Positions 884-22,796 of a DNA stretch of 25,110 nt are shown piece after piece. The stretch covers positions 1-25,110 of the forward strand of contig JAPYVP010000007.1 of NCBI GenBank assembly GCA_028276785.1, read 5' to 3'. How positions within the stretch are numbered: the first letter of the stretch is position 1; each line of letters starts with the position of its first letter. The position numbers and the translations under genes are program-made. The notes under the pieces were generated by a model. The model was not told the origin of the DNA and searched no databases. It worked only from the letters and a program-made list of their open reading frames with translations. The DNA comes from Candidatus Nanopusillus sp. GTDB taxonomy: Archaea > Nanobdellota > Nanobdellia > Nanobdellales > Nanobdellaceae.

Positions 884-1708
884 TTACATATTTATATTTA
901 TTAAAAACATACCCTTTGGAACAATTGGAATTATAATGTTAAATAGTATTATAACCATAAATAAAAATATTGTTATATATTTTGCTCCTGCTTTATAAGA
1001 ACCATCATACATCTTTCCCATAGACAATCCAGCAAAAACTGCCTGAATTATTGACATATAATACATTAGATCATTAATAAAATTAAAATCAATTTTTGAT
1101 GATTGTCCTGGCAATGAAATTTGTAAAAAGGGTAATAAAAATATTTGAAATGTAAATACTATACCTAAGAAAAACACAAATACAATATAAGAATGAATTA
1201 CATTTTCATGCATTGCTACCTTTTTATCTTCCTTTATTTTTCTAATCTCCATTATACTATTTATAATTGCTTCCAAACCCTGTTCAAGATTCCCACCTTC
1301 CTTATATATATCTATTAAAGATTGTATTGTTCTCTTAATCATTCTATTATTACTTTCCTCTGCAAATTGATTGAATGAATCTTCAATACTAATACCCCAA
1401 TCAATTCTAGATGATAAGTTTTTTACTAATTCATTAATTCTTCCATAATCGTTTTTTTCTAATTGTTTTAATGCAATTGGCAGTGATAATCCAGATTTCA
1501 ATAATTCTATTAAATCTACTGAAAATCTAATAAATTGTTCTTCTTTTTCTTTTTCTATATTATTAACAATTGTTTGATAGATTAAATAAGGAAATATGCC
1601 AACCACTATACCAGTTACAATTGAATTTAAAATACTAAAATTGAATATGAAATATAATAAAAATATGAGAATTATAATAATAAGTATAGTAACTATTTCC
1701 TCTCTCAT
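884..1708 (-). CDS. FlaJ/TadC-like type II secretion system F-domain membrane protein (second half of the platform)
   Basis: 274 aa. N-terminal TM segments are followed by a cytoplasmic T2SSF-like helical domain (LLKSGLSLPIALKQL...GISIEDSFNQFAEE...EGGNLEQGLEAI) and C-terminal TMs. Its start overlaps the upstream gene's stop as ATGA (1705-1708). Confidence 0.7.
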   Translation of the reverse strand: MREEIVTILIIIILIFLLYFIFNFSILNSIVTGIVVGIFPYLIYQTIVNNIEKEKEEQFIRFSVDLIELLKSGLSLPIALKQLEKNDYGRINELVKNLSSRIDWGISIEDSFNQFAEESNNRMIKRTIQSLIDIYKEGGNLEQGLEAIINSIMEIRKIKEDKKVAMHENVIHSYIVFVFFLGIVFTFQIFLLPFLQISLPGQSSKIDFNFINDLMYYMSIIQAVFAGLSMGKMYDGSYKAGAKYITIFLFMVIILFNIIIPIVPKGMFLININM

Positions 1709-3084
1709 TCTTTTGTTAATTTATTGAATAATATCATAAAGCCAACATTAATGATTGGTAACCCCACATATGTAATTATTTCTAATATCCCACGAATATT
1801 CATATTATATGTTTGCTGCAATATTGACAATAACATTACTCCAATAGATATTATTATCATTGGAATTGTTAATACCATCCCTACATACAAATCTGAAAAT
1901 GTTTTCATTATCTGATTAGTTCTCCTTAAAAACGCATTATATCTTATCATTTCTTGCTGAGAATATAATATTAAAAATTCTGATATCTTTCTCCCAGATG
2001 TAATGGTCAATATTAATTCTTCCAAAAAATCTTTTAGATCTTTTGATAACGTATCATCAGCAACAGATCTTAATGATTCTACTAAACCCCTTCCCAAACT
2101 TATTTTATCGTATATTTTTTTAAATTCTTTAGATAAATATCCATATTCTTCAGTTTCACTTATTATTTTTATTATATACTTTATTTCTATTCCCGCATCT
2201 GCTAATGAAGCCATATGTATTATAGCAAATGGTAAATTTCTATTTATATCCTCTACTATACTTTGCTTTTTATAATTAAAATACAAAATAAGCAATCCTA
2301 TCACAAACAAAAATATTAATACACCATAAATTAGATATAAAATATTTAAAAAGTATAATGAAATAAATATTGAAATAAGAATAATAATTGATGAAAATAA
2401 AAATATGACAGATAATAGTTCATCAGGTTCTATATTATAATAAGCTTCCCTCAATGAATATTTTAAGTAAAAATATAATTTTGGATTACTATTTAAAATT
2501 TTTCTGGATAAATTTCCAAATATTTTATATGAAAATCTTATTAACATATTTTTAATCTCTTGATAATAATCTATTTTATGTTCTTTAGTTAATTTTAATT
2601 TACGTTTTATTTTTTTCTTTCTTTCTTCTTTCTTTTTAGATAATATAGTTGATACTTCAATAAATCTTTTACTAATTCTTATCTCTTCTTTCTTAAATAT
2701 ATCAGGATAAACTCTATTAATATAATTTATTGTATCATTTATCTTCATTTGATAATATTGAATATTTTTGTTTTCTTCTTCACTTTTTCCTTCTATGTTC
2801 TTTAAAAATTCTATTATTTTTTGGCTATTATTTATTAAATTGATTAAATCATACAATATTAAATATTTAAATCTTTCTAAATACTTTATTTTCTTTTCAA
2901 CTATTGTTATCCTTCTTTTATATTCTTTCTCATCAAAATAACCATCTAAGTATAATCTATAAAAATATTTTTTTATCTCTTCCTTTCTTTTTATTTCCCT
3001 TACAATATTTTTTAGTTTATTAATGTATCTTTCTATTTCTTCTATGTTCTTTTCTAAGTTTATTAGAATATTTTTGTTAATCAT
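1705..3084 (-). CDS. FlaJ/TadB-like T2SSF-domain membrane protein with a long N-terminal K/E-rich coiled-coil extension (first half of the platform)
   Basis: 459 aa. Residues ~1-170 are charged heptad-like low complexity. TM segments and a T2SSF-like domain follow (NLPFAIIHMASLADAGIEI...ISLGRGLVESLRSVADDT...ITSGRKISEFL). It is divergent from the FlaI-like ATPase gene. Confidence 0.65.
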   Translation of the reverse strand: MINKNILINLEKNIEEIERYINKLKNIVREIKRKEEIKKYFYRLYLDGYFDEKEYKRRITIVEKKIKYLERFKYLILYDLINLINNSQKIIEFLKNIEGKSEEENKNIQYYQMKINDTINYINRVYPDIFKKEEIRISKRFIEVSTILSKKKEERKKKIKRKLKLTKEHKIDYYQEIKNMLIRFSYKIFGNLSRKILNSNPKLYFYLKYSLREAYYNIEPDELLSVIFLFSSIIILISIFISLYFLNILYLIYGVLIFLFVIGLLILYFNYKKQSIVEDINRNLPFAIIHMASLADAGIEIKYIIKIISETEEYGYLSKEFKKIYDKISLGRGLVESLRSVADDTLSKDLKDFLEELILTITSGRKISEFLILYSQQEMIRYNAFLRRTNQIMKTFSDLYVGMVLTIPMIIISIGVMLLSILQQTYNMNIRGILEIITYVGLPIINVGFMILFNKLTKE

Positions 3085-3126
3085 TATGAATAGTTTATAT
3101 ATTCTAGAATATATTAATCTTTTATC

Positions 3127-4620
3127 ATGATAAACATCAGATTTATTAATGATATAAAAATAAATGTACCCAAAAATAAATTTGAAACTAATATAACTTA
3201 TCCAATTGTAGAGCCCTTTTCATATGCACATATATATTTTGATAGGAGTACATATGATATTGTATATGAAATAATAGAGCCAAAATTAACTGAAAATGAA
3301 GAAAAAATATATAAAAACATAATTTTTTATATTGAAAAACTATTATATATTAAATTATCCGAAATAAATAACTTAAATGATGTTATAAATTATTTACAAA
3401 GATTATATGATTTTGTATTAAAAGATTTAGGAATAGAATTAGGACAATCCTCTTATGAAAAAATATTTTATTATATTTTTAGAGATCTTTATGGATATAA
3501 TAAAGTAGATTCTTTATTAAGAGATCCATTAATTGAGGATATTGAATGTTCTGGTCCGGGTTATCCAATATTTATTGTTCACAGATATTTTGGAAATTTA
3601 AGGACGAACATAATTTTAAATGATAAAGAAATTAGAGACCTAATTGAAAAATTTGCATTAAGAGCCGGAAAACATATATCATATGCAGAGCCAATTTTAG
3701 ATGCAACATTACCTGATGGATCAAGAGTAAATGCAACATATTCACAAGAAATTACTACGCATGGTCCAACATTTACAATAAGAAAATTTAGAGAAATTCC
3801 ATGGACTCCCATAGAATTAATAAGATTGGGAAGTGCAACTCCAGAAATATTTGCATATTTATGGTTAGCTGTAGAATTTAGAAAAAATATAATCATAATA
3901 GGAGGTACAGCTTCTGGAAAAACAACAATGTTAAATGCAATATCAATGTTTATACCACCAAGTGCTAGAATTGTTTCAATTGAAGATACAAGAGAAATAA
4001 GATTATATCATTCTAATTGGATCCCCTCTGTAGTAAAATATTCTTCTGATAAAAATAGAGAAATTGATATGTTTGAATTATTAAGAATGTCCTTTAGACA
4101 AAGACCAGATTATGTAATTGTTGGAGAAGTAAGGGGGGAAGAAGCATATGTAATGTTCCAGGGAATGGCTTCTGGTCATTCTTCTTTATCAACAATGCAT
4201 GCTGAAAATACAAGAGCATTAATAAGTAGATTAACAACACCACCAATAAATTTATCTCCAACATTAATTGAACTATTAAATGTTGTAGTAATAATGCAAC
4301 ATGATAATTTTCTTGGAACAAACCTAAGGAGGGTTAAAGAAATTAATGAAATTGTAAAATATAATAAATTTAATATTGCGTATAAGTGGAATCCTTTTAA
4401 AAGGGAATATTTGGAAAATCCTAAAAAATACTTATTTAGATTAATTGAAAATGAGTTTGGAATAAAATATAAAGAACTATATGAAGAATATCTTACAAGA
4501 TCAAAATTGCTATATAGATTATCTGAATTAAATATTTCAGATTTTCAAACTTTTAGTAAAATTGTACAAATGTATTACTATAATAAAGAGAATGTTTTGA
4601 AATATTATAATATTGAATAA
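3127..4620 (+). CDS. flaI: FlaI/ArlI-type archaellum or type IV pilus assembly ATPase (GspE/VirB11 superfamily)
   Basis: 497 aa. Walker A is GGTASGKTT. The Asp box/Walker B region is ARIVSIEDTREI ... RQRPDYVIVGEVRGEEAYVMFQGMASGHSSLSTMHA (His box). Confidence 0.88.
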   Translation: MINIRFINDIKINVPKNKFETNITYPIVEPFSYAHIYFDRSTYDIVYEIIEPKLTENEEKIYKNIIFYIEKLLYIKLSEINNLNDVINYLQRLYDFVLKDLGIELGQSSYEKIFYYIFRDLYGYNKVDSLLRDPLIEDIECSGPGYPIFIVHRYFGNLRTNIILNDKEIRDLIEKFALRAGKHISYAEPILDATLPDGSRVNATYSQEITTHGPTFTIRKFREIPWTPIELIRLGSATPEIFAYLWLAVEFRKNIIIIGGTASGKTTMLNAISMFIPPSARIVSIEDTREIRLYHSNWIPSVVKYSSDKNREIDMFELLRMSFRQRPDYVIVGEVRGEEAYVMFQGMASGHSSLSTMHAENTRALISRLTTPPINLSPTLIELLNVVVIMQHDNFLGTNLRRVKEINEIVKYNKFNIAYKWNPFKREYLENPKKYLFRLIENEFGIKYKELYEEYLTRSKLLYRLSELNISDFQTFSKIVQMYYYNKENVLKYYNIE

Positions 4621-4625
4621 AATTT

Positions 4626-4657
4626 GGGGTCGAGGGAATATATAGTCTCACGGGAAC
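4626..4657 (-). other. 3' half of the 23S rRNA processing stem
   Basis: 4632-4650 is the perfect reverse complement of 7567-7585 (19 bp). Flanking shorter pairings are 4626-4629/7590-7593 and 4653-4657/7562-7566. Confidence 0.75.
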
Positions 4658-7566
4658 TTCAAGCGGTCGGCTGAACTCCTTTTCGGAGCTTACACCGCCG
4701 CTCTGAGTCGGATCTTTTATCCGACCCCTTAACGGCCGCCTATTTTTGAGGGGGGCTTCACCCTTAGATGCCTTCAGGGCTTATCCCTTGGGGCGTAGCT
4801 ACCGGGCATGCCCTTCTCGGACAGCCCGTACACCAGAGGCCCCGGCCCGCCGTTCCTTTCGTACTAGGCGGACCTTCCCCTCAGGCGGCCAGCACTTCCG
4901 ACAGTTATAACCGAACTGCCTCGCGGCGTTCTGAACCCATCTCACGATCCCCTTTAATGGGTGGACACCCCCACCCTTGGCGGCTTCTGCACCACCAGGA
5001 TGGGGAGAGACGACATCGATGTCGCAAACCGCGGGGTCAATGGGGGCTCTCGCCCGCGACGGCGCTGTTACCCCCGGAGTAGCTTTTCCGCCAGCCCGTA
5101 CCCCCACTAGTGAGAGTACGGGGTTCGCTAGGCCCGGGTTTCCCCCCTGTGCCCCTTGATGGTCAGGGCACAGTCAGGCCAGCTTTTGGCCTTGTCCTCT
5201 ACGGCGGATTCCTGACCCGCCTGAGCTGACCTTATGGACCCTGCCGATACCTTTTCGGCAAGGTGCCGCCCCAGCCAAACCGCCCACCTGCCGCTGTCCC
5301 CTTTCGGGTTAGCCCTGAAGAACCTGGAGGCGGGTGTTTCATCGTCGCATCCTTCCTACCTAGCGGCAGGAATTCATTGCTCCCCGCTACCCTACACACC
5401 AGGTTCTTCAGAGCAACAACAGGCTGCGGTTAAGCTTCACGGGGTCTTTTTTACCCATCGGAAGTCCCTGGCCTTCTCACCAGGATAGCTTTTCAGGGGG
5501 CGCCGGCCCGGGACAGTGGCGGGCTAGTTACGTCGTTCGCAGAGCCAGCATTTAACTGGCAAGGCATTACGCTACCTTAAGAGGGTCAGAGTTACCCCCG
5601 CCGTTTACCGGTCCTTACCCCCCTTGAACGGGGGATTCAGATACCGGCACCGAGCAGACGTCACCCCCAGTACAAACCCTTTCGGGCTTGCTGGGAGCTA
5701 TGTTTTTGGTAAACAGTCCGCCCGTCCTTGTCACTGCGACCTGCGGTCCACACCGCAGGCATCCCTTCTCCCGAAGTTACGGGACCAATTTGCCAAGTTC
5801 CCTAGACCGGCTTGACCCCCACGGCCTTAGGCTTCTCACCCAGGGGACCTATGCTGGATTTCGGTACGATCGCCTCGAATCGCACCCTTTCCCTTTTCAT
5901 TGCCGGAAGGCCTCAGCGTAACCCTTTCGGGCCCATCAGGGTTTAGACCGGTTCTCACCATGACGGTACTCCCCGGTCCTATCCCCCTTGGCACGGTAAG
6001 TGGGTTTTACCCCACCCCCGTGTACGCCTAGCCCTCCGGGTCGGGAAAGGGCGTTGCGTTGCCGCATCTATCGGGGCGGTAGGGGAATATTAACCCCTTT
6101 CCCTTTCTCCAGACTCCTCTCGGAGCCTGGATTAGGATCGACTAACCCCAGGCTGATCTTCATTGCCTGGGAAACCTTTCCCCTTTCGGCCGACGGGATT
6201 CTCACCCGTCTGATTCTTACTACCGCGGGGATCTTCATTCCCGACGGCTCCAGGCTCCCTTTCGGGAACCCTTCTAGGCCATCGGGACGCCCGCCTACCT
6301 CACGCTGGCATTTGCCAGCGGACCGAGGTCTCGGCGGCTGGCTTAGACCCGTCCGTTTTCGGAGCCTACCCCCTCGTCGGGTGAGTTGTTACACACTCCT
6401 TAGATGATGGCCACTATTAGGCCCACATCCCCGATGTCTTAGGGGGCAGACTCCTTCAACATCGTTTAGCCAGCACTTTGGGGCCTTAACCTCGGTCTCG
6501 GTTGTTCCCGTCTCGGAGTTGCGGCTTTCCCGCAACCCCCGTTTCCCGGGCTACGGACCCTATGGCTTCGGAGTTGGACTCCGTACGGAAACCCGTACAG
6601 AATCCGTCGCTCTACACCATAGGGATCCTAACCCGAGACCTGGCTGGGGTCAGTTTCGGCGGGGACCGGCTATCACCGGGCCCGAGTGGCTTTTCACCTC
6701 TACCCCAGGGTCATGAGAGGAGTAAGCTCCACCTCTTCGGGCCTCCACGGGAAACCCCGCTTCACCCTGCCCCGGGGTAGATCGCCCGGTTTCCGGTCAT
6801 ACCCGAGTGACTAAACCGCCCTTATGGGACGGCGCCCCTCACCTGGAGAAACCCAGGTTGCGGGCTTTCGGTTTCCCTATGGCTTCGGCATGAACCTTAA
6901 CCTCGCCACTCGGGTATACTCCCCCGCAAGTTCTTCAAAACTCACGGTAGAACTAGCTAGCATCCTATCTGGTACTCATCTGTCACCAGATTTTCCCAGA
7001 TAGGATGCTTAACTAGCCCTACCAGACTATCCCCGCCCGGTTTCAGGCTCTTTTCACCCCCTGCCAAGGGTTCTTTTCACCTTTCGGTCGCCCTACTAAT
7101 ACGCTATCGGACTCGGAAAGTATTTAGCCTTGGGGGCTAGTTTCCCCCAAATTCCCGACGGAAATCCAACCGCCGGTACTCCGGAAACGGGAAATCCCGT
7201 TATTGTATTCCCATACGGGGCTGTCACCCTCTACGGCCCCGGACTTCCACCGGAGTTCTAGGAATACAATAACGGGAAGCTCCCGCTCCTTTACCCCACA
7301 TCTCCTCTAAATTACTTTAGAGGATTCGGTTTAGGCTTCTTCCCTTTCGGTCGCCCCTACTCAGGAAATCACAATTTGTTTTTTATTCCTGCGGGTACTA
7401 AGATGTTTCCCTTCCCCGCGTTCCCCTCCCTTACGGGATGCCTTTCGGCAGGATATCCCATTCGGGGATCCGGAGATCAACGGTTGCATGCACCTCCCTC
7501 CGGCTTTTCGCAGCTTGCCGCGCCCTTCTTCGGCTTCCGAGCCGAGGCATCCACCGGGCGGGTTCC
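4651..7566 (-). rRNA. rrl: 23S (large-subunit) ribosomal RNA; ends approximate
   Basis: A GC-rich ~2.9-kb block sits in AT-rich surroundings. On the minus strand, the 5' domain reads CCCGCCCGGUGGAUGCCUCGGC...GGGAAACAUCUUAGUACCCGCAGGAA. Also present are CCAAGGCUAAAUAC...GAAAGGUGAAAAGAACC and the sarcin-ricin loop AGUACGAAAGGAAC (revcomp of ~4856-4869). All ORFs called inside it are artefacts. Confidence 0.97.
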
Positions 7567-7594
7567 TGAGACTATATATTCCCTCTCATCCCCC
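7562..7594 (-). other. 5' half of the 23S rRNA processing stem
   Basis: Complement of 4626-4657 (see the partner feature). It lies immediately upstream of the 23S 5' domain on the minus strand. Confidence 0.75.
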
Positions 7595-7676: not shown

Positions 7677-9386
7677 ATGTATCACCGTGATTTTTCTACT
7701 ATGAAAGAAAGCATTTTAGATAAAAATGTCAATTTTTCTGAATGGTATAACAATATAATAAGAATTTCTAAAATCATAGATGATAGATATCCTATAAAGG
7801 GGATGCCTGTCTACTATCCAAACGGATATTTCGCAATTAGGAAAATATTAAATATTTTAGAAAATGAATTGGAAAAGTATGGATTTGAACCTTACTGGTT
7901 TCCAATATTAATTCCATATGAAATATTTAAAAGAGAAAGTGAACATATAAAAGGTTTTGAATCTGAAGTATTTTATGTTACTCCCTCAAAACCTGTAGAA
8001 GAAGAAAAAGAAATAAAGTACATATTAAGACCAACATCTGAAACAGAAATGTATTACATGTTTTCTTTATGGATAAGATCTTACAGAGATCTACCTCTAT
8101 TAACTTACATGACAAATACAGTATATAGATATGAAACTAAGGCAACAAAACCATTGGTTAGGGGAAGAGAAATTTTGTGGAACGAAGCACATACAGCACA
8201 TAAGGATTTAGATGACGCTGAAAAAATGATAAAGAAATCTATGGAAATATATTCAAAAGTTTTTTGGGATCATTTATCAATACCACACATATGGATAAGA
8301 AGACCAGATTGGGATAAATTTGCCGGAGCAGATTACACATTTGCTGCAGATACTATATTACCAGATGGAAAGTTTTTACAAATTGGAACTACACATTTAT
8401 TGGGGAGGAATTTTTCTAAAGCATTTAATATTATTTTTGAGGATGAACATCCATTTATAAAAATAGATAAAAACAAATTCGAGGCCTTTAATGAAAATAA
8501 TTACAGATATGAAATAGAAATTATTGAAGATAAAATAAAAATAAGATTATACGATAATAATAAAGAATTAATTAAATCTTATGAAGAAAAAATCGAATTC
8601 GATGAGGATATATCCGAAGATAATAAGAATTTAATAAACAAAATAAATAATATAATTAAAAATAAATTTAATGAAGATAAATTAGTCAATAAGAAATTTG
8701 TTTGGCAAACATCATTTGGAATATCTATGAGAACTTTAAGTGCAGTAATTTCAATACATGGAGATAATAAAGGTTTAATATTACCTTTTGAAATATCTCA
8801 CATTCAAATAATAATTATTCCAATATACTATTCTGAAGATGAAAGAAGTAAAATATTAAAATATTGTGAAGATGTATACAATTTATTAAAAGAAAAATAT
8901 AGAGTAAAAATTGATAAAGATGATACAAAAAGTCCTGGATGGAAATTTAATCAATACGAATTAATGGGAGTACCATTTAGGATATCTATCGGAAAAAGAG
9001 AATTAGAAAAAAATACAGTTACAATATCAGTAAGGCAATATGACAGTAAATCAAAAAATTATGAAATCAAATTAGAAAATTTATTAAATGAGTTAGATAG
9101 GTTAATTATTGAATATGATAAAGAGCTTAAAGAAAGGGCAAAAAAGTATTTTGAAAATAAAATATTAAAAATAGACAATTTAAAGGATTTGGAAAATAAT
9201 TTAGATAAAAATATAGCATTTAAGGTTCCTTTTTGTATGAAAGAAGAGTGTGCAAAGAATATTAAAGAAAAATATTCATTGGACGTAAGAGGAACCGATA
9301 TTATACCAGAAGATGCAAAGAATAAAAAATGTATTTTTTGCAATACAGATGCAAAATATTATGTATACGTAGGAAAAAGTTATTAA
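7677..9386 (+). CDS. proS: prolyl-tRNA synthetase, archaeal/eukaryote-like type, with an internal low-complexity insertion
   Basis: Class II motifs are present: ILRPTSETEMYYMF, YRYETKATKPLVRGREILWNEAHTAH, GTTHLLGRNFSKAF. The C-terminal Cys-rich domain (CMKEEC...CIFC) ends in the conserved terminal Tyr. The true start may be the second Met at 7701. Confidence 0.95.
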   Translation: MYHRDFSTMKESILDKNVNFSEWYNNIIRISKIIDDRYPIKGMPVYYPNGYFAIRKILNILENELEKYGFEPYWFPILIPYEIFKRESEHIKGFESEVFYVTPSKPVEEEKEIKYILRPTSETEMYYMFSLWIRSYRDLPLLTYMTNTVYRYETKATKPLVRGREILWNEAHTAHKDLDDAEKMIKKSMEIYSKVFWDHLSIPHIWIRRPDWDKFAGADYTFAADTILPDGKFLQIGTTHLLGRNFSKAFNIIFEDEHPFIKIDKNKFEAFNENNYRYEIEIIEDKIKIRLYDNNKELIKSYEEKIEFDEDISEDNKNLINKINNIIKNKFNEDKLVNKKFVWQTSFGISMRTLSAVISIHGDNKGLILPFEISHIQIIIIPIYYSEDERSKILKYCEDVYNLLKEKYRVKIDKDDTKSPGWKFNQYELMGVPFRISIGKRELEKNTVTISVRQYDSKSKNYEIKLENLLNELDRLIIEYDKELKERAKKYFENKILKIDNLKDLENNLDKNIAFKVPFCMKEECAKNIKEKYSLDVRGTDIIPEDAKNKKCIFCNTDAKYYVYVGKSY

Positions 9387-9387
9387 T

Positions 9388-9620
9388 GTGTAGCCGTAGG
9401 CTGCTTTTAGTATATATTTTTCTAAGCGGACAGGCCTTGTACCGCCAGGACATACTTCTCAAGGTACATATACCCTCTCCAAGTTTACCCAGAGTTGCCT
9501 CCGGGTATTAACTCTTCATCTTCATTGGGTATATGCCCGTGATTTCTGGTTATGTAGCCAGGGGTTTCCCCCTCCGATTTCTCGGTGGCTTATCGGTAAG
9601 CAGACCTTCCTACGGCCACC
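9388..9620 (-). ncRNA. structured GC-rich non-coding RNA; candidate minimal RNase P RNA (family and strand unconfirmed)
   Basis: A 233-nt GC-rich island between AT-rich flanks. Its termini pair (9390-9400/9609-9619, extended by 9401-9406/9598-9603). A tight three-way junction at 9556-9590 has two 4-bp hairpins that carry GAAA tetraloops on the minus strand. There is a 9-10 bp helix at 9467-9475/9527-9535. RNase P-like CR-I/CR-IV/CR-V strings occur in the correct order on the minus strand. A TTTATATA box lies 22-29 nt upstream on the minus strand. Confidence 0.5.
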
Positions 9621-9651
9621 TTTTTATATATTTCTTCTAACTATATAAATT

Positions 9652-9810
9652 ATGTCGGACCGTACACCATTATTTGCATACCTTGGATTATATAAGTTTG
9701 GAAAAGAAAAATCAAAAATAAAGTTAAATAGAAATAAAATAATAATACTTATAATTGTTTTTGCGGCTTTAGTATATATTGCAAATATTTATATATCATG
9801 CCTAATTTAG
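9652..9810 (+). CDS. small hypothetical membrane protein (52 aa), not in the ORF track
   Basis: ATG at 9652 opens a stop-free 52-codon frame (MSDRTPLFAYLGLYKFGKEKSKIKLNRNKIIILIIVFAALVYIANIYISCLI) with one clear TM segment. Its end overlaps the start of the next gene. A stop-free run this long is unlikely by chance at this AT content. Confidence 0.3.
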   Translation: MSDRTPLFAYLGLYKFGKEKSKIKLNRNKIIILIIVFAALVYIANIYISCLI

Positions 9811-10250: not shown

Positions 10251-11005
10251 TGGCAAAAGTATATACAATATCATCTGGAAAAGGTGGAGTAGGAAAAACC
10301 TTCTTTTCTATAAATTTATCTAGAGCTTTATCATTATTAAACTTTAAAACATTATTAATTGATTTTAACCTAAGTACACCAAATATATCAATAAATCTTG
10401 GATTGGGTAATGAAAACAACAATATACATAAATTTTTAAGGGGCGAAATTGATATAAATGACTGTATAAAAGAGTATAAAGAAAACTTTTATATAATTCC
10501 TGGAAGTTTGGATATAAAGGACTTAATATATATTTCTACAGAAAAATTACATAAAGGGATAATGAAGATATATGACGATTTCGATTATATTATCATAGAT
10601 TCTGCCGCTGGAATTGGCAAAGAAGCGGTAGAAGCATTAAAAGCTTCAGAAGAAGTAATATTGATAACAAATGTTGAGAAATCATCACTGATAGATGCAT
10701 ATAGAGTTACAAAAGTTTTGGATAATTTGGATATAAAAACTTTTGGAATTGTTTTAAATAAAATTAAAGGACGAGTAAATTATGTAAGAATTGAAAGCTT
10801 TTTTAAAAAACAAATAATTGGAGTAATTCATTATGATAAAAATGTGCAAATTTCAATGGATAAAGGTATACCTTTAATAGACTACAATATAAATTCTGTA
10901 GCATCCAAAGATATAATAAAAATTGCAGAAGAAATAACCGGAAAGAATTTGGAAATTAGAAATAGCCTCATAGATAATATATTGAAAATATTTAAATGGA
11001 GATAG
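10250..11005 (+). CDS. minD: MinD/ParA-family P-loop ATPase
   Basis: Deviant Walker A SGKGGVGKT at the N-terminus, a Walker B-like YIIIDSAAG, and a MinD-like length of 251 aa. Confidence 0.85.
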   Translation: MAKVYTISSGKGGVGKTFFSINLSRALSLLNFKTLLIDFNLSTPNISINLGLGNENNNIHKFLRGEIDINDCIKEYKENFYIIPGSLDIKDLIYISTEKLHKGIMKIYDDFDYIIIDSAAGIGKEAVEALKASEEVILITNVEKSSLIDAYRVTKVLDNLDIKTFGIVLNKIKGRVNYVRIESFFKKQIIGVIHYDKNVQISMDKGIPLIDYNINSVASKDIIKIAEEITGKNLEIRNSLIDNILKIFKWR

Positions 11006-11271
11006 ATTTTGAATTGGATAAAATATTTGAAATATTAGATAGAAAAAAATATAAAAAAGTATTATTACAATTTCCAGATGGATTAAAACCATATTCAAAA
11101 GAAGTATACGATAAAATAAAAGAAAAATATAAAGATCTTGAAATATATATTTGGTTTGGATCTGATTTTGGCGGATGTGATATACCAATATATTTAGATA
11201 AATATGGGTTTGATTTGATAGTTCATTTTGGCCATTCAAAATTTTATAAATTAAAGATAGATGAACAATAA
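10996..11271 (+). CDS. dph2: N-terminal fragment (~85 residues) of diphthamide synthase Dph2; split gene or truncated relic
   Basis: The 91-aa ORF carries Dph1/Dph2 N-terminal signatures: KKVLLQFPDGLK, FGGCD (first Fe-S cysteine ligand) and LIVHFGHS. Archaeal Dph2 is ~330-340 aa. No Dph2-like sequence follows in any frame downstream. Confidence 0.7.
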   Translation: MEIDFELDKIFEILDRKKYKKVLLQFPDGLKPYSKEVYDKIKEKYKDLEIYIWFGSDFGGCDIPIYLDKYGFDLIVHFGHSKFYKLKIDEQ

Positions 11272-20157: not shown

Positions 20158-21009
20158 TTATTTGCATAAAGTTTTAGCATATTCATGAATCGGTCCAAAT
20201 TGAATTGAAACAACTTCTAATTTATTTGGATCGAAAACAAAACTATAAACACAACCCTTAATAACATTTTGAATTTCTCCTGTAGGAGAAGTTATAATCT
20301 TTTTATAACAGAAAATGTATGGAGAAAAATAATGCCTACAATAAAGGTAATTTATATTTTCTCCCTTTTCATTTCCATAACTACATATGTAGTACCCAGT
20401 AGCACATACAGTGAAACCATCAAAACTTCCTGTAAATGCTGGATGTAGTAGTACATTATCTGATGTTAGATCATTTATAGTTCTTGGAGACCAAAGCAAT
20501 AGCCAAGAGGGAGTCTCCAAGTATTTTCTTATAGTATTTTCTATGAAGGACTTTACCTCTTTATATGGATAAGGATTTCCATTTATTAGTTCGTTTATTT
20601 TTGTGATAAATGATACCCCTAAATTTGATAGAAAAAGAGCACAAACAATAATAGCAACCAATAAAGAAGAAAAAATTCCTCTTTTTGATACATTTTTTGC
20701 TGAACCATAAGCTATAAGTACAGAACCTATTGTAAAAATCCAAAATCCTATTCCAACAAAGTTAACCAAGCTTATCTCATTAGAAGTTGATAAATAATAC
20801 AAAAAAGATAATGCAGAAATAATTAAAAATAACGAACCTGTAAAAATAATAGAATTTTTAGAAAGTAATAACCCAAGAATTCCAATTATAAAACCTAAAA
20901 CAATAAGAATAAGAAGAGCCATTAGGATATAATTCGCAGTTATAATATAATTAAATAAACTTGCCGATAAATTTGTCATCTGAATGTTTAATATTTCTTC
21001 TTGAAACAT
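20158..21009 (-). CDS. hypothetical multi-pass membrane protein with a Cys-containing C-terminal soluble domain
   Basis: 283 aa. About 5-6 TM helices lie in the first 135 residues. A globular C-terminal part follows with 7 Cys (CATGYYIC, YCRHY, FCYKK, KGC, TLCK). Confidence 0.6.
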   Translation of the reverse strand: MFQEEILNIQMTNLSASLFNYIITANYILMALLILIVLGFIIGILGLLLSKNSIIFTGSLFLIISALSFLYYLSTSNEISLVNFVGIGFWIFTIGSVLIAYGSAKNVSKRGIFSSLLVAIIVCALFLSNLGVSFITKINELINGNPYPYKEVKSFIENTIRKYLETPSWLLLWSPRTINDLTSDNVLLHPAFTGSFDGFTVCATGYYICSYGNEKGENINYLYCRHYFSPYIFCYKKIITSPTGEIQNVIKGCVYSFVFDPNKLEVVSIQFGPIHEYAKTLCK

Positions 21010-21026
21010 GGTAATCCATGTAATAT

Positions 21027-21563
21027 CTATAGGTAATCCGAATAAAGAGATAGAAATCCAGGGAAGAAAGAGTGAAAAAAGGACAAAAATAGTCCCAATA
21101 TAACTGTTCCATCTATAATTTCTGAAGTAAATCTTAATTTAAAGAATTTTTTTATTGATGGAAATTTAAAGAATCTTCTTTTTTTAGGAAATTTATTTGA
21201 AGATTTATCATATAAATTAATTTTTTTCTTTTCCATTTTTTCTATCTTATTTAAAGCCTTCGAATATTTTTCTCTTTCTTCTCTTTCCTCCATTTCAAAA
21301 TTTTCAAAATATTGCATCGTCCAAACAGAATCCGGATGACCACCCTCCTTTCTCCATTCTTCATAAAGTTTTTCCTTTAAAATAGGATCTTTAGTTTTTT
21401 CTATTGCACTCCAAGTTGTTACCAATTTGGGTTCTATATGTTTTTCACAAAACCATCCTTTACAATAAGGACATTGATAAAGTTTCTTTTCAGAAGAATC
21501 ACCTTCTCTTACTTTACATTCAGGACATATACCAAATTTTATATTTTCATTAGAATTTTCCAT
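21027..21563 (-). CDS. AN1-like zinc-finger protein with a C-terminal membrane anchor
   Basis: The N-terminus CPEC-x13-CPYC-x4-C-x2-H follows most of the AN1 zinc-finger spacing. The middle is charged and the C-terminal segment is hydrophobic (GTVILGLFLSFFHSFFPGFL). Confidence 0.6.
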   Translation of the reverse strand: MENSNENIKFGICPECKVREGDSSEKKLYQCPYCKGWFCEKHIEPKLVTTWSAIEKTKDPILKEKLYEEWRKEGGHPDSVWTMQYFENFEMEEREEREKYSKALNKIEKMEKKKINLYDKSSNKFPKKRRFFKFPSIKKFFKLRFTSEIIDGTVILGLFLSFFHSFFPGFLSLYSDYL

Positions 21564-21710
21564 AAGGGTTTATTTCAAAGAATTTTTATAAAATCTTATT
21601 ATTTATAAGAATTTTTCTTTCAAACTCTTAAGAAAAATTACTAACATCTAACATTTAATACCATATTTTCTTTGAATATTTTACAAGATTTACAATTAAA
21701 AATTATAATT

Positions 21711-21785
21711 TGCCCCCACCGGGATTTGAACCCGGGTCTCGGGGATGAGAACCCCGTATCCTGGACCTGACTAGACGATGGGGGC
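21711..21785 (-). tRNA. tRNA-Glu (anticodon CUC), 75 nt, no intron, CCA not encoded
   Basis: Minus strand reads GCCCCCAUCGUCUAGUCAGGUCCAGGAUACGGGGUUCUCAUCCCCGAGACCCGGGUUCAAAUCCCGGUGGGGGCA. Acceptor stem is 7 bp. The anticodon stem is CGGGG/CCCCG with loop UUCUCAU. The T arm is CCGGG-UUCAAAU-CCCGG. Confidence 0.92.
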
Positions 21786-22063
21786 TATTGTTTATTTAAT
21801 ATATATTCAGAATTTTGAGTTATAACTATTATATTTGTTCCATTATCATAACATATAATATTTTCCCACATACAAATGTTATAATATGTTTGATTTATGA
21901 TAGAAGAATAATTCGGATACAATAATAATTTGACATAGAAATCTTGTGCAATATATTTACCAATATTGGGTTGATAATAAAAATCATTTTGTAAATTAGA
22001 AACAAAGTACAATGTCATAAACAATATTAATATTAGATATAATAAAATAAATTGTGATCTCAT
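21785..22063 (-). CDS. small secreted/membrane-anchored protein with an N-terminal hydrophobic (pilin-like) segment
   Basis: The track start at 22069 is TTG. The ATG at 22063 gives MRSQFILLYLILILFMTLYF... and an ATGA overlap with the upstream gene. There are 3 N-x-S/T sequons. The stop codon shares its last base with tRNA-Glu position 1. Confidence 0.5.
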   Translation of the reverse strand: MRSQFILLYLILILFMTLYFVSNLQNDFYYQPNIGKYIAQDFYVKLLLYPNYSSIINQTYYNICMWENIICYDNGTNIIVITQNSEYILNKQ

Positions 22064-22404
22064 TTCCAATATATATATACATAATCTATTGAGCCATTAA
22101 TAATATAAAAAGTTGCAATTCCCTGTTCAGCTTCACTTAAATTTATATTATTAAATGCTAATTGTCCATTTATTTCAACATAATAATATGGTAAAATATT
22201 TGTAACAATTTGATATAAACTATCATTTAATTGTTGTGTATTATTTAGATACATATAATTTATTGATATCAATGATGCGTACAAATCTTCTTTATCATAT
22301 CCCCCAATATAAAAACTACTATAATATGTCGAAGTTAGAATAAAATATAAAACTATTATTACAACCACTAATTCAATAAATATTGATATACTAAAAGCCC
22401 TCAT
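22060..22404 (-). CDS. putative type IV pilin/archaellin-like protein (class III signal peptide)
   Basis: The N-terminus MRA|FSISIFIELVVVIIVLYF fits the archaeal prepilin pattern [KR][GA]|[F..][ILMVTAS]x3 followed by a hydrophobic helix. There are 4 N-x-S/T sequons. ATGA overlaps occur at both ends. Confidence 0.55.
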   Translation of the reverse strand: MRAFSISIFIELVVVIIVLYFILTSTYYSSFYIGGYDKEDLYASLISINYMYLNNTQQLNDSLYQIVTNILPYYYVEINGQLAFNNINLSEAEQGIATFYIINGSIDYVYIYWK

Positions 22405-22796
22405 TGAACTAATACACTAACTAAAAATAATGAGCCATTATAATAACAAACCCTGGTAAATGCTATATAATTATTTTGTATGTTTATTATATCACCATTA
22501 CCAAAAATATATTCTTGGCTAGTATTACTTAAATTTCTATATATTATTACATATGGGAAACTTGCTAAATTATTCATTATATTTGGATCAAAATTGTTTG
22601 ATGTTAAATTACAAATATTATCAGTATATTTCTCCGTTATTTCTTTAATCAAAACCCTCCCATGCATGAATTGATTGTATATAATTTGATATTTTTCATT
22701 AACATTATAAATATAAGAAACTTTTTCCATCAATAATAAGGTAACAAAAAATATTACCAAAACTATTACGAATAATTCAAAAAACCTGTCTAGCAT
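22401..22796 (-). CDS. small protein with an N-terminal hydrophobic helix, pilin-like or pilus accessory
   Basis: The N-terminus is MLDRFFELFVIVLVIFFVTLLLM. There are 4 N-x-S/T sequons. It is the first gene of a three-gene overlapping operon. Confidence 0.5.
   Translation of the reverse strand: MLDRFFELFVIVLVIFFVTLLLMEKVSYIYNVNEKYQIIYNQFMHGRVLIKEITEKYTDNICNLTSNNFDPNIMNNLASFPYVIIYRNLSNTSQEYIFGNGDIINIQNNYIAFTRVCYYNGSLFLVSVLVQ

Follow-up and report, generated by a model that had tools for sequence, protein, structure and literature searches.

A short RNase P RNA, found with Infernal, and three protein subunits of the enzyme have been reported in Nst1 (Podar et al., 2013, PMC3655853). A 2026 PNAS study, in which the RNA of Nanobsidianus stetteri was modelled, describes P3 and P2 as deleted in the Nanoarchaeales (Nanopusillaceae), treats this as a loss that RNase P RNAs tolerate, and takes the model as an argument for P2 being a tertiary element that is not essential (PMC12974513). 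The RNA and its P2/P3-less shape are thus already known (2013, 2026), and Podar et al. had already pointed out in 2013 the significance of finding RNase P in reduced form in an organism related to Nanoarchaeum equitans. The present analysis reaches the published architecture independently and leaves that picture unchanged; what it adds is covariation across the whole family, the explicit loss of P15–P17, a K-turn signature in P12 and a putative promoter.

The window analysed here (the whole stretch of DNA examined, 25,110 nucleotides) derives from a genome of Candidatus Nanopusillus (Nanopusillaceae, Nanoarchaeota). Its RNA is the same orthologue as the Nanopusillaceae/Nst1 RNA, with the same locus beside proS, the same length and the same loss of P2 and P3, but belongs to a different Nanopusillus strain. 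With the type A RNA (RF00373 consensus) it shares P1, P4 with its bulged U, P5, P7–P12 and CR-I to CR-V, and it has a putative K-turn at the P12 position of the type A K-turn. It differs from type A in being without P2, P3, P15, P16, P17 and P6, in having P4 nested rather than in a pseudoknot, and in its length of ~233 nt as against the 288 positions of the RF00373 model. Type T RNA (the same as type P, of Thermoproteaceae/Pyrobaculum) is likewise a strongly shortened archaeal RNA from a hyperthermophile source. However, its catalytic domain is conventional and it is the specificity domain that has mostly been lost (PMC4919922; PMC12974513), which is the opposite of the situation in the window RNA. 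Type M RNA (Methanococcales, Archaeoglobus) resembles the window RNA in being without the L15 substrate loop, P16 and the P6 pseudoknot (PMC4919922), but it is without P8 and possesses P2, P3 and a P15 stem (PMC4919922; PMC6565675), whereas the window RNA has P8 and none of these three. The mitochondrial RNase P RNA of ascomycete yeasts (Rpm1-type) also has neither P2 nor P3 and retains P1 and P4 (PMC12974513). That RNA is, however, organellar and extremely AT-rich, while the RNA described here is cellular and has a complete specificity domain. Rpm1-type RNA has also lost most of its specificity domain.

The locus was recognised as a GC-rich island (9388–9620) with a G+C content of 0.41–0.47, compared with 0.20–0.25 in the flanks. 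It is bordered by the stop codon (9386) of the ProRS gene (proS, 7677–9386), which ends just before it, and by a 52-aa ORF beginning at 9652. The minus strand was found to match the archaeal RNase P model RF00373 over 9386–9622 with 70.9 bits (E = 7e-20), spanning model positions 1–288. This falls under the Rfam gathering score of 84 for the family, because the P2/P3 and P15 deletions are penalised. The match surfaced only when E-value filters were used on the sub-region 9330–9680, as a scan of the whole window at gathering thresholds found only archaeal LSU rRNA (4639–7578, minus strand) and a tRNA; the sub-threshold score plausibly accounts for the gene being unannotated by standard Rfam annotation. 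The most divergent of the genome orthologues (L010) reaches 91.3 bits, above the gathering score, and its RF00373 alignment shows the three deletions seen in the window RNA. A preliminary description of this DNA, made from the letters alone, had put forward a candidate RNase P RNA, preferably read on the minus strand, and had named SRP RNA among the families to be compared. The covariance-model check on both strands of 9330–9680 bears out this family assignment, with no significant match to archaeal SRP RNA or to any other family; no further Rfam family reached E < 0.1, the next best being a plant miRNA (E = 0.12). We consider, with a probability of about 0.93, that the island encodes the catalytic RNA subunit of RNase P in reduced form. 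Judged from its sequence, the Nanopusillus RNase P RNA is likely to be functional. Its features are collected in Table 1.

Table 1. Features of the Nanopusillus RNase P RNA gene and its putative expression signals, in the order in which the minus strand is read (positions in the window).
Feature	Positions	Strand	Details
RNase P RNA gene (RPR)	9388–9620	minus	~233 nt
Archaeal TATA box TTTATATA	9642–9649	minus	centred 25.5–26.5 nt upstream of G9620/G9619
P1 5' strand GUGGCCGU	9612–9619	minus	pairs with 9390–9397; 8 bp, 100% paired, 4/8 covary
CR-I	9599–9612	minus	J1/4 AGGA (9611–9608) and P4 5' strand
P4 5' strand AGG[U]CUGCU	9607–9599	minus	bulged U at 9604
P5 5' strand UACC	9595–9598	minus	pairs with GGUA 9440–9443; 100% paired, one A-U>G-C compensation
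P7 5' strand GCCA	9586–9589	minus	pairs with UGGC 9444–9447; 4/4 pairs covary
P8 hairpin CCGA-GAAA-UCGG	9585–9574	minus	2/4 pairs covary
P9 hairpin AGGGG-GAAA-CCCCU	9573–9560	minus	4/5 pairs covary
P10 5' (GG), P11 5' (CAUA, 9554–9551) and CR-II	within 9539–9559	minus	
CR-II ACCAGAAAUCAC	9550–9539	minus	aligned by Rfam to uggcACAGAAACGAcAC
P12	9463–9538	minus	proximal helix, K-turn signature, 5-bp middle helix, 9-bp distal hairpin with GCAA loop
CR-III UUGAGAAG	9462–9455	minus	aligned by Rfam to UGAAACGgcca
P11 3' (UAUG, 9454–9451) and P10 3' (CC, 9449–9448)	within 9448–9462	minus	
Linker CAAGGCCUGUCCGCUUAGAAAAAUAUAUACUAAA	9406–9439	minus	34 nt, nearly invariant, single-stranded
CR-V	9397–9411	minus	ACUAAA and P4 3' strand AGCAGCCU (9405–9398), abutting P1
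P1 3' strand ACGGCUAC	9390–9397	minus	comparative pair counts
T5 run	9374–9378	minus	10 nt past P1, within the 3'-terminal part of the ProRS coding sequence

Orthologues of the RNA are widespread among close relatives. The exact ProRS sequence of the window had no entry in a look-up. It shares 95% identity with its counterpart in a Candidatus Nanopusillus MAG, 90–91% with those of Nanobsidianus stetteri and Nanopusillus acidilobi, 65–72% with those of strain YN1, Nanobdella aerobiophila and other Nanopusillaceae, and 48% with the Nanoarchaeum equitans protein. In 13 Nanopusillaceae genomes the RNA lies just downstream of the proS gene, on the strand opposite to it, and is 73–96% identical; the two N. 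stetteri copies (L012 and L002) occupy the same locus and share 93–94% identity with the window RNA over its full length. When metagenomes were scanned with an invariant pattern of 30 nt taken from the RNA, 22 further hot-spring contigs were obtained, each with a full-length copy, of which those on L097 and L090 are clearly more divergent than the others. The RNA was not found in the proS locus of N. equitans (L014; 21.6 kb, that locus alone) or in a 'Woesearchaeota' locus (L013; ~20 kb of the genome).

The secondary structure was assessed by comparative pair counts. Over 35 sequences, 98.1% of the cells of the canonical model are standard pairs and 40 of the 65 pairs change on both sides; none of 500 shuffles matched this, and slid controls were 31–42% paired. 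The corresponding values over 14 sequences are 98.5% and 36 of 64 pairs. One pair, G9536-U9466, was unsupported and was removed from the model. An all-against-all covariation scan of single pairs in 14 sequences was far too noisy and was replaced by a stacked-helix scan. The fold of the minus strand has an energy of -91.7 kcal/mol (z = -6.39, 0/200 shuffles), and that of the plus strand is weaker (z = -3.42). The strand is fixed as minus by the 40 G·U cells in the model as against 7 A·C cells. Both the GC-rich structured character of the island and the minus-strand reading, as first described, are thereby upheld, and the helices that the description shares with the canonical model (the P1 core, distal P4, P8, P9 and proximal P12) do well in the counts.

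In the catalytic domain, eight of the 11 pairs first proposed for a terminal helix are conserved and constitute P1, and the single G·U of that helix (A·C on the plus strand) is present. The last three pairs compete with P4 and lose; they break in three sequences, and the rival P4 pair shows a G-C to A-U compensation. P4, which had been thought weak (2 + 4 bp), is an 8-bp helix with a bulged U formed by AGG[U]CUGCU and AGCAGCCU, 98.9% paired over the 35 sequences, with four of its eight pairs covarying (compensatory changes UA>CG, GC>AU and GC>AU). The adjoining conserved regions were aligned by Rfam as well, UAGGAAGGUCUGC of CR-I to GAGGAAAgUCC and CR-V (ACUAAAAGCAGCCUA in the Rfam layout) to ACAGAAGGgGGcUUA, the CR-V of the window RNA having ACUAAA where the consensus has ACAGAA. 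P2 and P3 are absent. The gap between P1 and P4 is 4 nt (AGGA), and in the Rfam alignments of the window RNA and L010 between 23 (window) and 25 model positions covering the P2 5' strand and P3 are deleted. In the absence of P2 and P3, P4 is nested directly inside P1 and does not form a pseudoknot. A pairing of ACCG with CGGU, originally interpreted as a P2-like helix, does exist, but its identity is P5.

The linker that follows P5 on its 3' side is made up of J5/15 (CAAGG), a vestigial P15 (GG-N4-5-CC), CR-IV (GCUUAGAAAAAU) and J/4, and P15–P17 and the P2 3' strand are missing from it. In the window RNA 37 of the 38 model positions of P15 are deleted in the Rfam alignment, and with L010 included 37–41 positions are reduced to 1–4 nt, leaving the invariant GG-N4-5-CC as the sole remnant. 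Of the earlier statement that P15–P18 are almost entirely missing, the absence of P15–P17 stands. The stacked-helix scan detected no conserved covarying helix within the linker or elsewhere outside the canonical model, which indicates that there is no cryptic P2 or P3. Two complementarities, CCUUG/CAAGG (9464–9460 with 9439–9435) and AAGGU/ACCUU, were rejected, as both are without genuine covariation and clash with supported pairs. The former is conserved and joins the P12 base/CR-III to J5/15, with two of its bases already paired at the P12 base; two conserved motifs may simply coincide here, or the bases may make a contact that is alternative or tertiary.

Sequence variants were observed among the relatives. 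In the copy at L090:8753–8995 (plus strand), the most divergent of the family, an A replaces the universally conserved bulged U of P4 (GGAAGGACCGCC; alignment A2, column 22). This copy is from a single metagenome contig, and the A may be due either to a sequencing error or to a genuine substitution at a metal-binding position. A C·A mismatch in P4 (A2 columns 24/229) is present in three metagenome copies that are closely related to one another (L098, L084 and L082), due to a change of U to C in the 5' strand without the compensating A to G. The RNA of Nanobdella aerobiophila has a 5-nt deletion in J5/7.

The specificity domain, which had been reported as almost entirely missing, is complete, as P7–P12, CR-II and CR-III are all present and covarying according to the Rfam alignment and the comparative counts. 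The spacer-free three-way junction (AGCCA/UGGCU) postulated in this region is 86.6% paired, with no double change in four of its five pairs, and did not hold; AGCCA pairs instead with UGGC at 9447–9444 to give P7, where all four pairs covary. The two 4-bp hairpins with GAAA caps that the junction was thought to enclose are nevertheless present, and are P8 and P9. All four pairs of P11 covary (alignment A2). P12 has 17 covarying pairs out of 26 (proximal 7/12, distal 10/14). Its proximal part includes the 9-bp helix 9467–9475/9527–9535, correctly identified from the single sequence and covarying at six of nine pairs, but the small hairpin placed within that helix (9491–9496/9510–9515) is 83.3% paired with zero compensation and was discarded. 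The conserved regions had been assigned out of place: the former CR-I is CR-II (marked by the Rfam layout as CAGAAAUCAC), the former CR-IV is CR-III, and the former CR-V corresponds to J5/15 and CR-IV.

A K-turn signature, defined by sequence alone, is found in P12, where an invariant AUGA (9519–9516) lies opposite GGA (9480–9478) and a second GA/GA is formed by 9523–9522 and 9477–9476; the register is ambiguous because AUGAAG is duplicated. The P12 K-turn of type A and type M RPRs is bound by L7Ae (PMC4245976), and L7Ae would be expected to bind at the P12 signature of the window RNA. In Nanobdella aerobiophila (L011:11683–11918, minus strand; alignment A1, columns 105–106/151–152) the first GA/GA tandem of P12 is changed to AA/UU, which is capable of Watson-Crick pairing, and the second, invariant AUGA/GGA is retained. 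This suggests that the second site alone is the essential K-turn.

With regard to expression, the TATA box occurs at a fixed distance in all 12 of the orthologues examined and is the probable promoter of the RNase P RNA. We infer a 5' end at G9620/G9619 and a 3' end between 9388 and the T-run, which is a possible archaeal terminator and is weak or absent in some orthologues. There is one tRNA gene in the window and none in most of the orthologous loci, and the AT-rich upstream sequence is ambiguous as to whether TATA boxes are placed for leaderless tRNAs. A second TTTATATA box is present on the plus strand (9623–9630), back to back with that of the minus strand in the region 9621–9654. It lies ~26 nt upstream of the ATG (9652) of the 52-aa ORF (9652–9810), which suggests a leaderless mRNA; this ORF has no Pfam match, and the position of its start codon is conserved across the orthologous loci.

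Several other features of the window were recorded. The archaeal 23S rRNA gene (4639–7578, minus strand) is complete, scoring 2530 bits and having a G+C content of 0.59 in a genome of ~22%. No 16S or 5S rRNA gene was found anywhere within the 25-kb window, which indicates that the rRNA genes are unlinked. Beside the 23S gene lies a gene for a T2SS-E/FlaI-like ATPase (3127–4620, plus strand), and near it are two genes for T2SS-F-like membrane proteins (884–1708 and 1705–3084, minus strand). These T2SS-like genes (884–4620) are probably part of the archaellum/pilus machinery reported for terrestrial Nanoarchaeota. A 91-aa ORF (10996–11271, plus strand) matches only positions 1–58 of the 302 positions of the diphthamide synthase profile and has the appearance of an N-terminal fragment from a split gene, in agreement with the split DPH2 that Podar et al. 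(2013, PMC3655853) list for Nst1. Around a tRNA-Glu(CUC) gene (21711–21785), several ORFs of 94–283 aa (20158–22796, minus strand) are without a Pfam match at E <= 0.001.

It could be argued that the locus is a decaying relic of an RNase P RNA gene, heading towards the type of loss seen in N. equitans and no longer giving a working ribozyme. The term 'partial degradation' was used by Podar et al. (2013, PMC3655853), P2, P3 and P15 have disappeared, no POP5 has been found and the Rfam score lies under the gathering score. However, helices would not survive double substitutions in a relic, whereas compensatory changes are seen here at 40 of 65 pairs with 98.1% of cells paired. The structure is under strong purifying selection over a family-level divergence at which ProRS identity falls to 57–65%, there is hardly any variation in CR-I to CR-V or in the 34-nt linker, and the putative promoter is conserved, so that decay appears improbable. 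An RNA that descends from RNase P RNA but now serves another function, on substrates other than pre-tRNA (compare RNase MRP in eukaryotes), would be in keeping with the remodelled catalytic domain and with the absence of L15, the site binding the tRNA 3' end. Against this, type M RNase P is likewise without L15 base pairing to the tRNA 3' end (PMC6565675), and both anchors that measure the tRNA, namely the CR-II/CR-III T-loop module and J5/15, have been kept (anchor roles: PMC6565675). A single RNase P RNA component was moreover described in Nst1 (PMC3655853) and is presumably the sole one. A change of function is considered less probable still than decay.

The preliminary description gave an RNA devoid of the S-domain and smaller even than type T, in which a P2-like helix was present, P3 was branched and P4 was weak. 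This architecture agrees with the length of ~233 nt, and its AGCCA/UGGCU complementarity is used by the minimum-energy fold of the single sequence. It is refuted by the comparative counts, in which the long-range P7 covaries at 4/4 pairs and the real P4 has 8 bp, and Rfam aligns the region in question to P7–P12 with CR-II and CR-III; very little credence can be given to it. The least credible reading of all, to the point of being negligible, is that the RNA belongs to another family, such as SRP RNA, or comes from the plus strand. The plus strand does beat its shuffles (z = -3.42), and the 11-nt identity to E. coli M1 RNA (rnpB) noted on that strand is real. However, this 11-mer is not conserved in the orthologues and is thus a coincidence, corresponding to P5-J5/7-P7 on the true (minus) strand, while the next best Rfam match has E = 0.12 and the ratio of G·U to A·C (40:7) favours the minus strand. 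The reading as a reduced RNase P RNA under selection is accordingly preferred.

We infer that such a reduced RNase P RNA is transcribed, bound by proteins and catalytically active. Transcription would proceed from the minus strand, starting ~26 nt past the TATA box near G9620. The catalytic domain is pared to a coaxial stack of P1, P4 and P5 with the single-stranded joiners CR-I, J5/15, CR-IV and CR-V. The CR-II and CR-III T-loop module would receive the tRNA elbow, positioning and cleavage of the 5' leader would fall to the J5/15 adenosine and the metal site at the bulged U of P4, and RPP21, RPP29, RPP30 and L7Ae may stand in for the lost RNA scaffolding. The M. jannaschii holoenzyme anchors the elbow of the tRNA through a T-loop structure made of CR-II and CR-III, an adenosine from the P5-P15 linker is stacked against the first acceptor pair, and the metal site is in P4 (PMC6565675; PMC4919922). 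The elbow anchor, the P5-P15 linker and the P4 elements of that enzyme are all present in the window RNA.

The lost parts can likewise be set against the M. jannaschii enzyme, in which the P2/P3 junction is the seat of Pop5, CR-IV is clasped by this protein, Rpp30 touches P2-P3, and a Pop5 helix packs on the P15 loop (PMC6565675). The P2/P3 junction and P15 loop of the M. jannaschii enzyme also mediate dimerisation. Among the proteins of Nst1, RPP21, RPP29, RPP30 and L7Ae were found and POP5 was not (Samanta et al., PMC4919917); a Pfam search of the window found no RNase P protein genes. As P2/P3 and P15 are lost, are the seats of Pop5 in M. jannaschii, and POP5 is unfound in Nst1, the lost RNA elements are the seats of the protein reported as missing. 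By this analogy a coupling of P2/P3 loss to POP5 loss is suggestive. That the RNase P of the Nanopusillaceae is a naturally pseudoknot-free, POP5-less and probably monomeric cellular enzyme is a tentative idea, and on balance a doubtful one. In such a POP5-less enzyme, CR-IV might be held by the nearly invariant 34-nt linker (9439–9406) or by an unrecognised protein.

The practical value of these results is modest and consists of a plausible reason for the missed Rfam annotation, a corrected anatomy and covariation support for the published architecture. For the biology of the family, the RNA represents an intermediate between normal archaeal RNase P and the complete loss in Nanoarchaeum equitans, and it indicates that an RNase P RNA can stay under selection without P2, P3 and P15. 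These two points are already in the literature (2013 and 2026).
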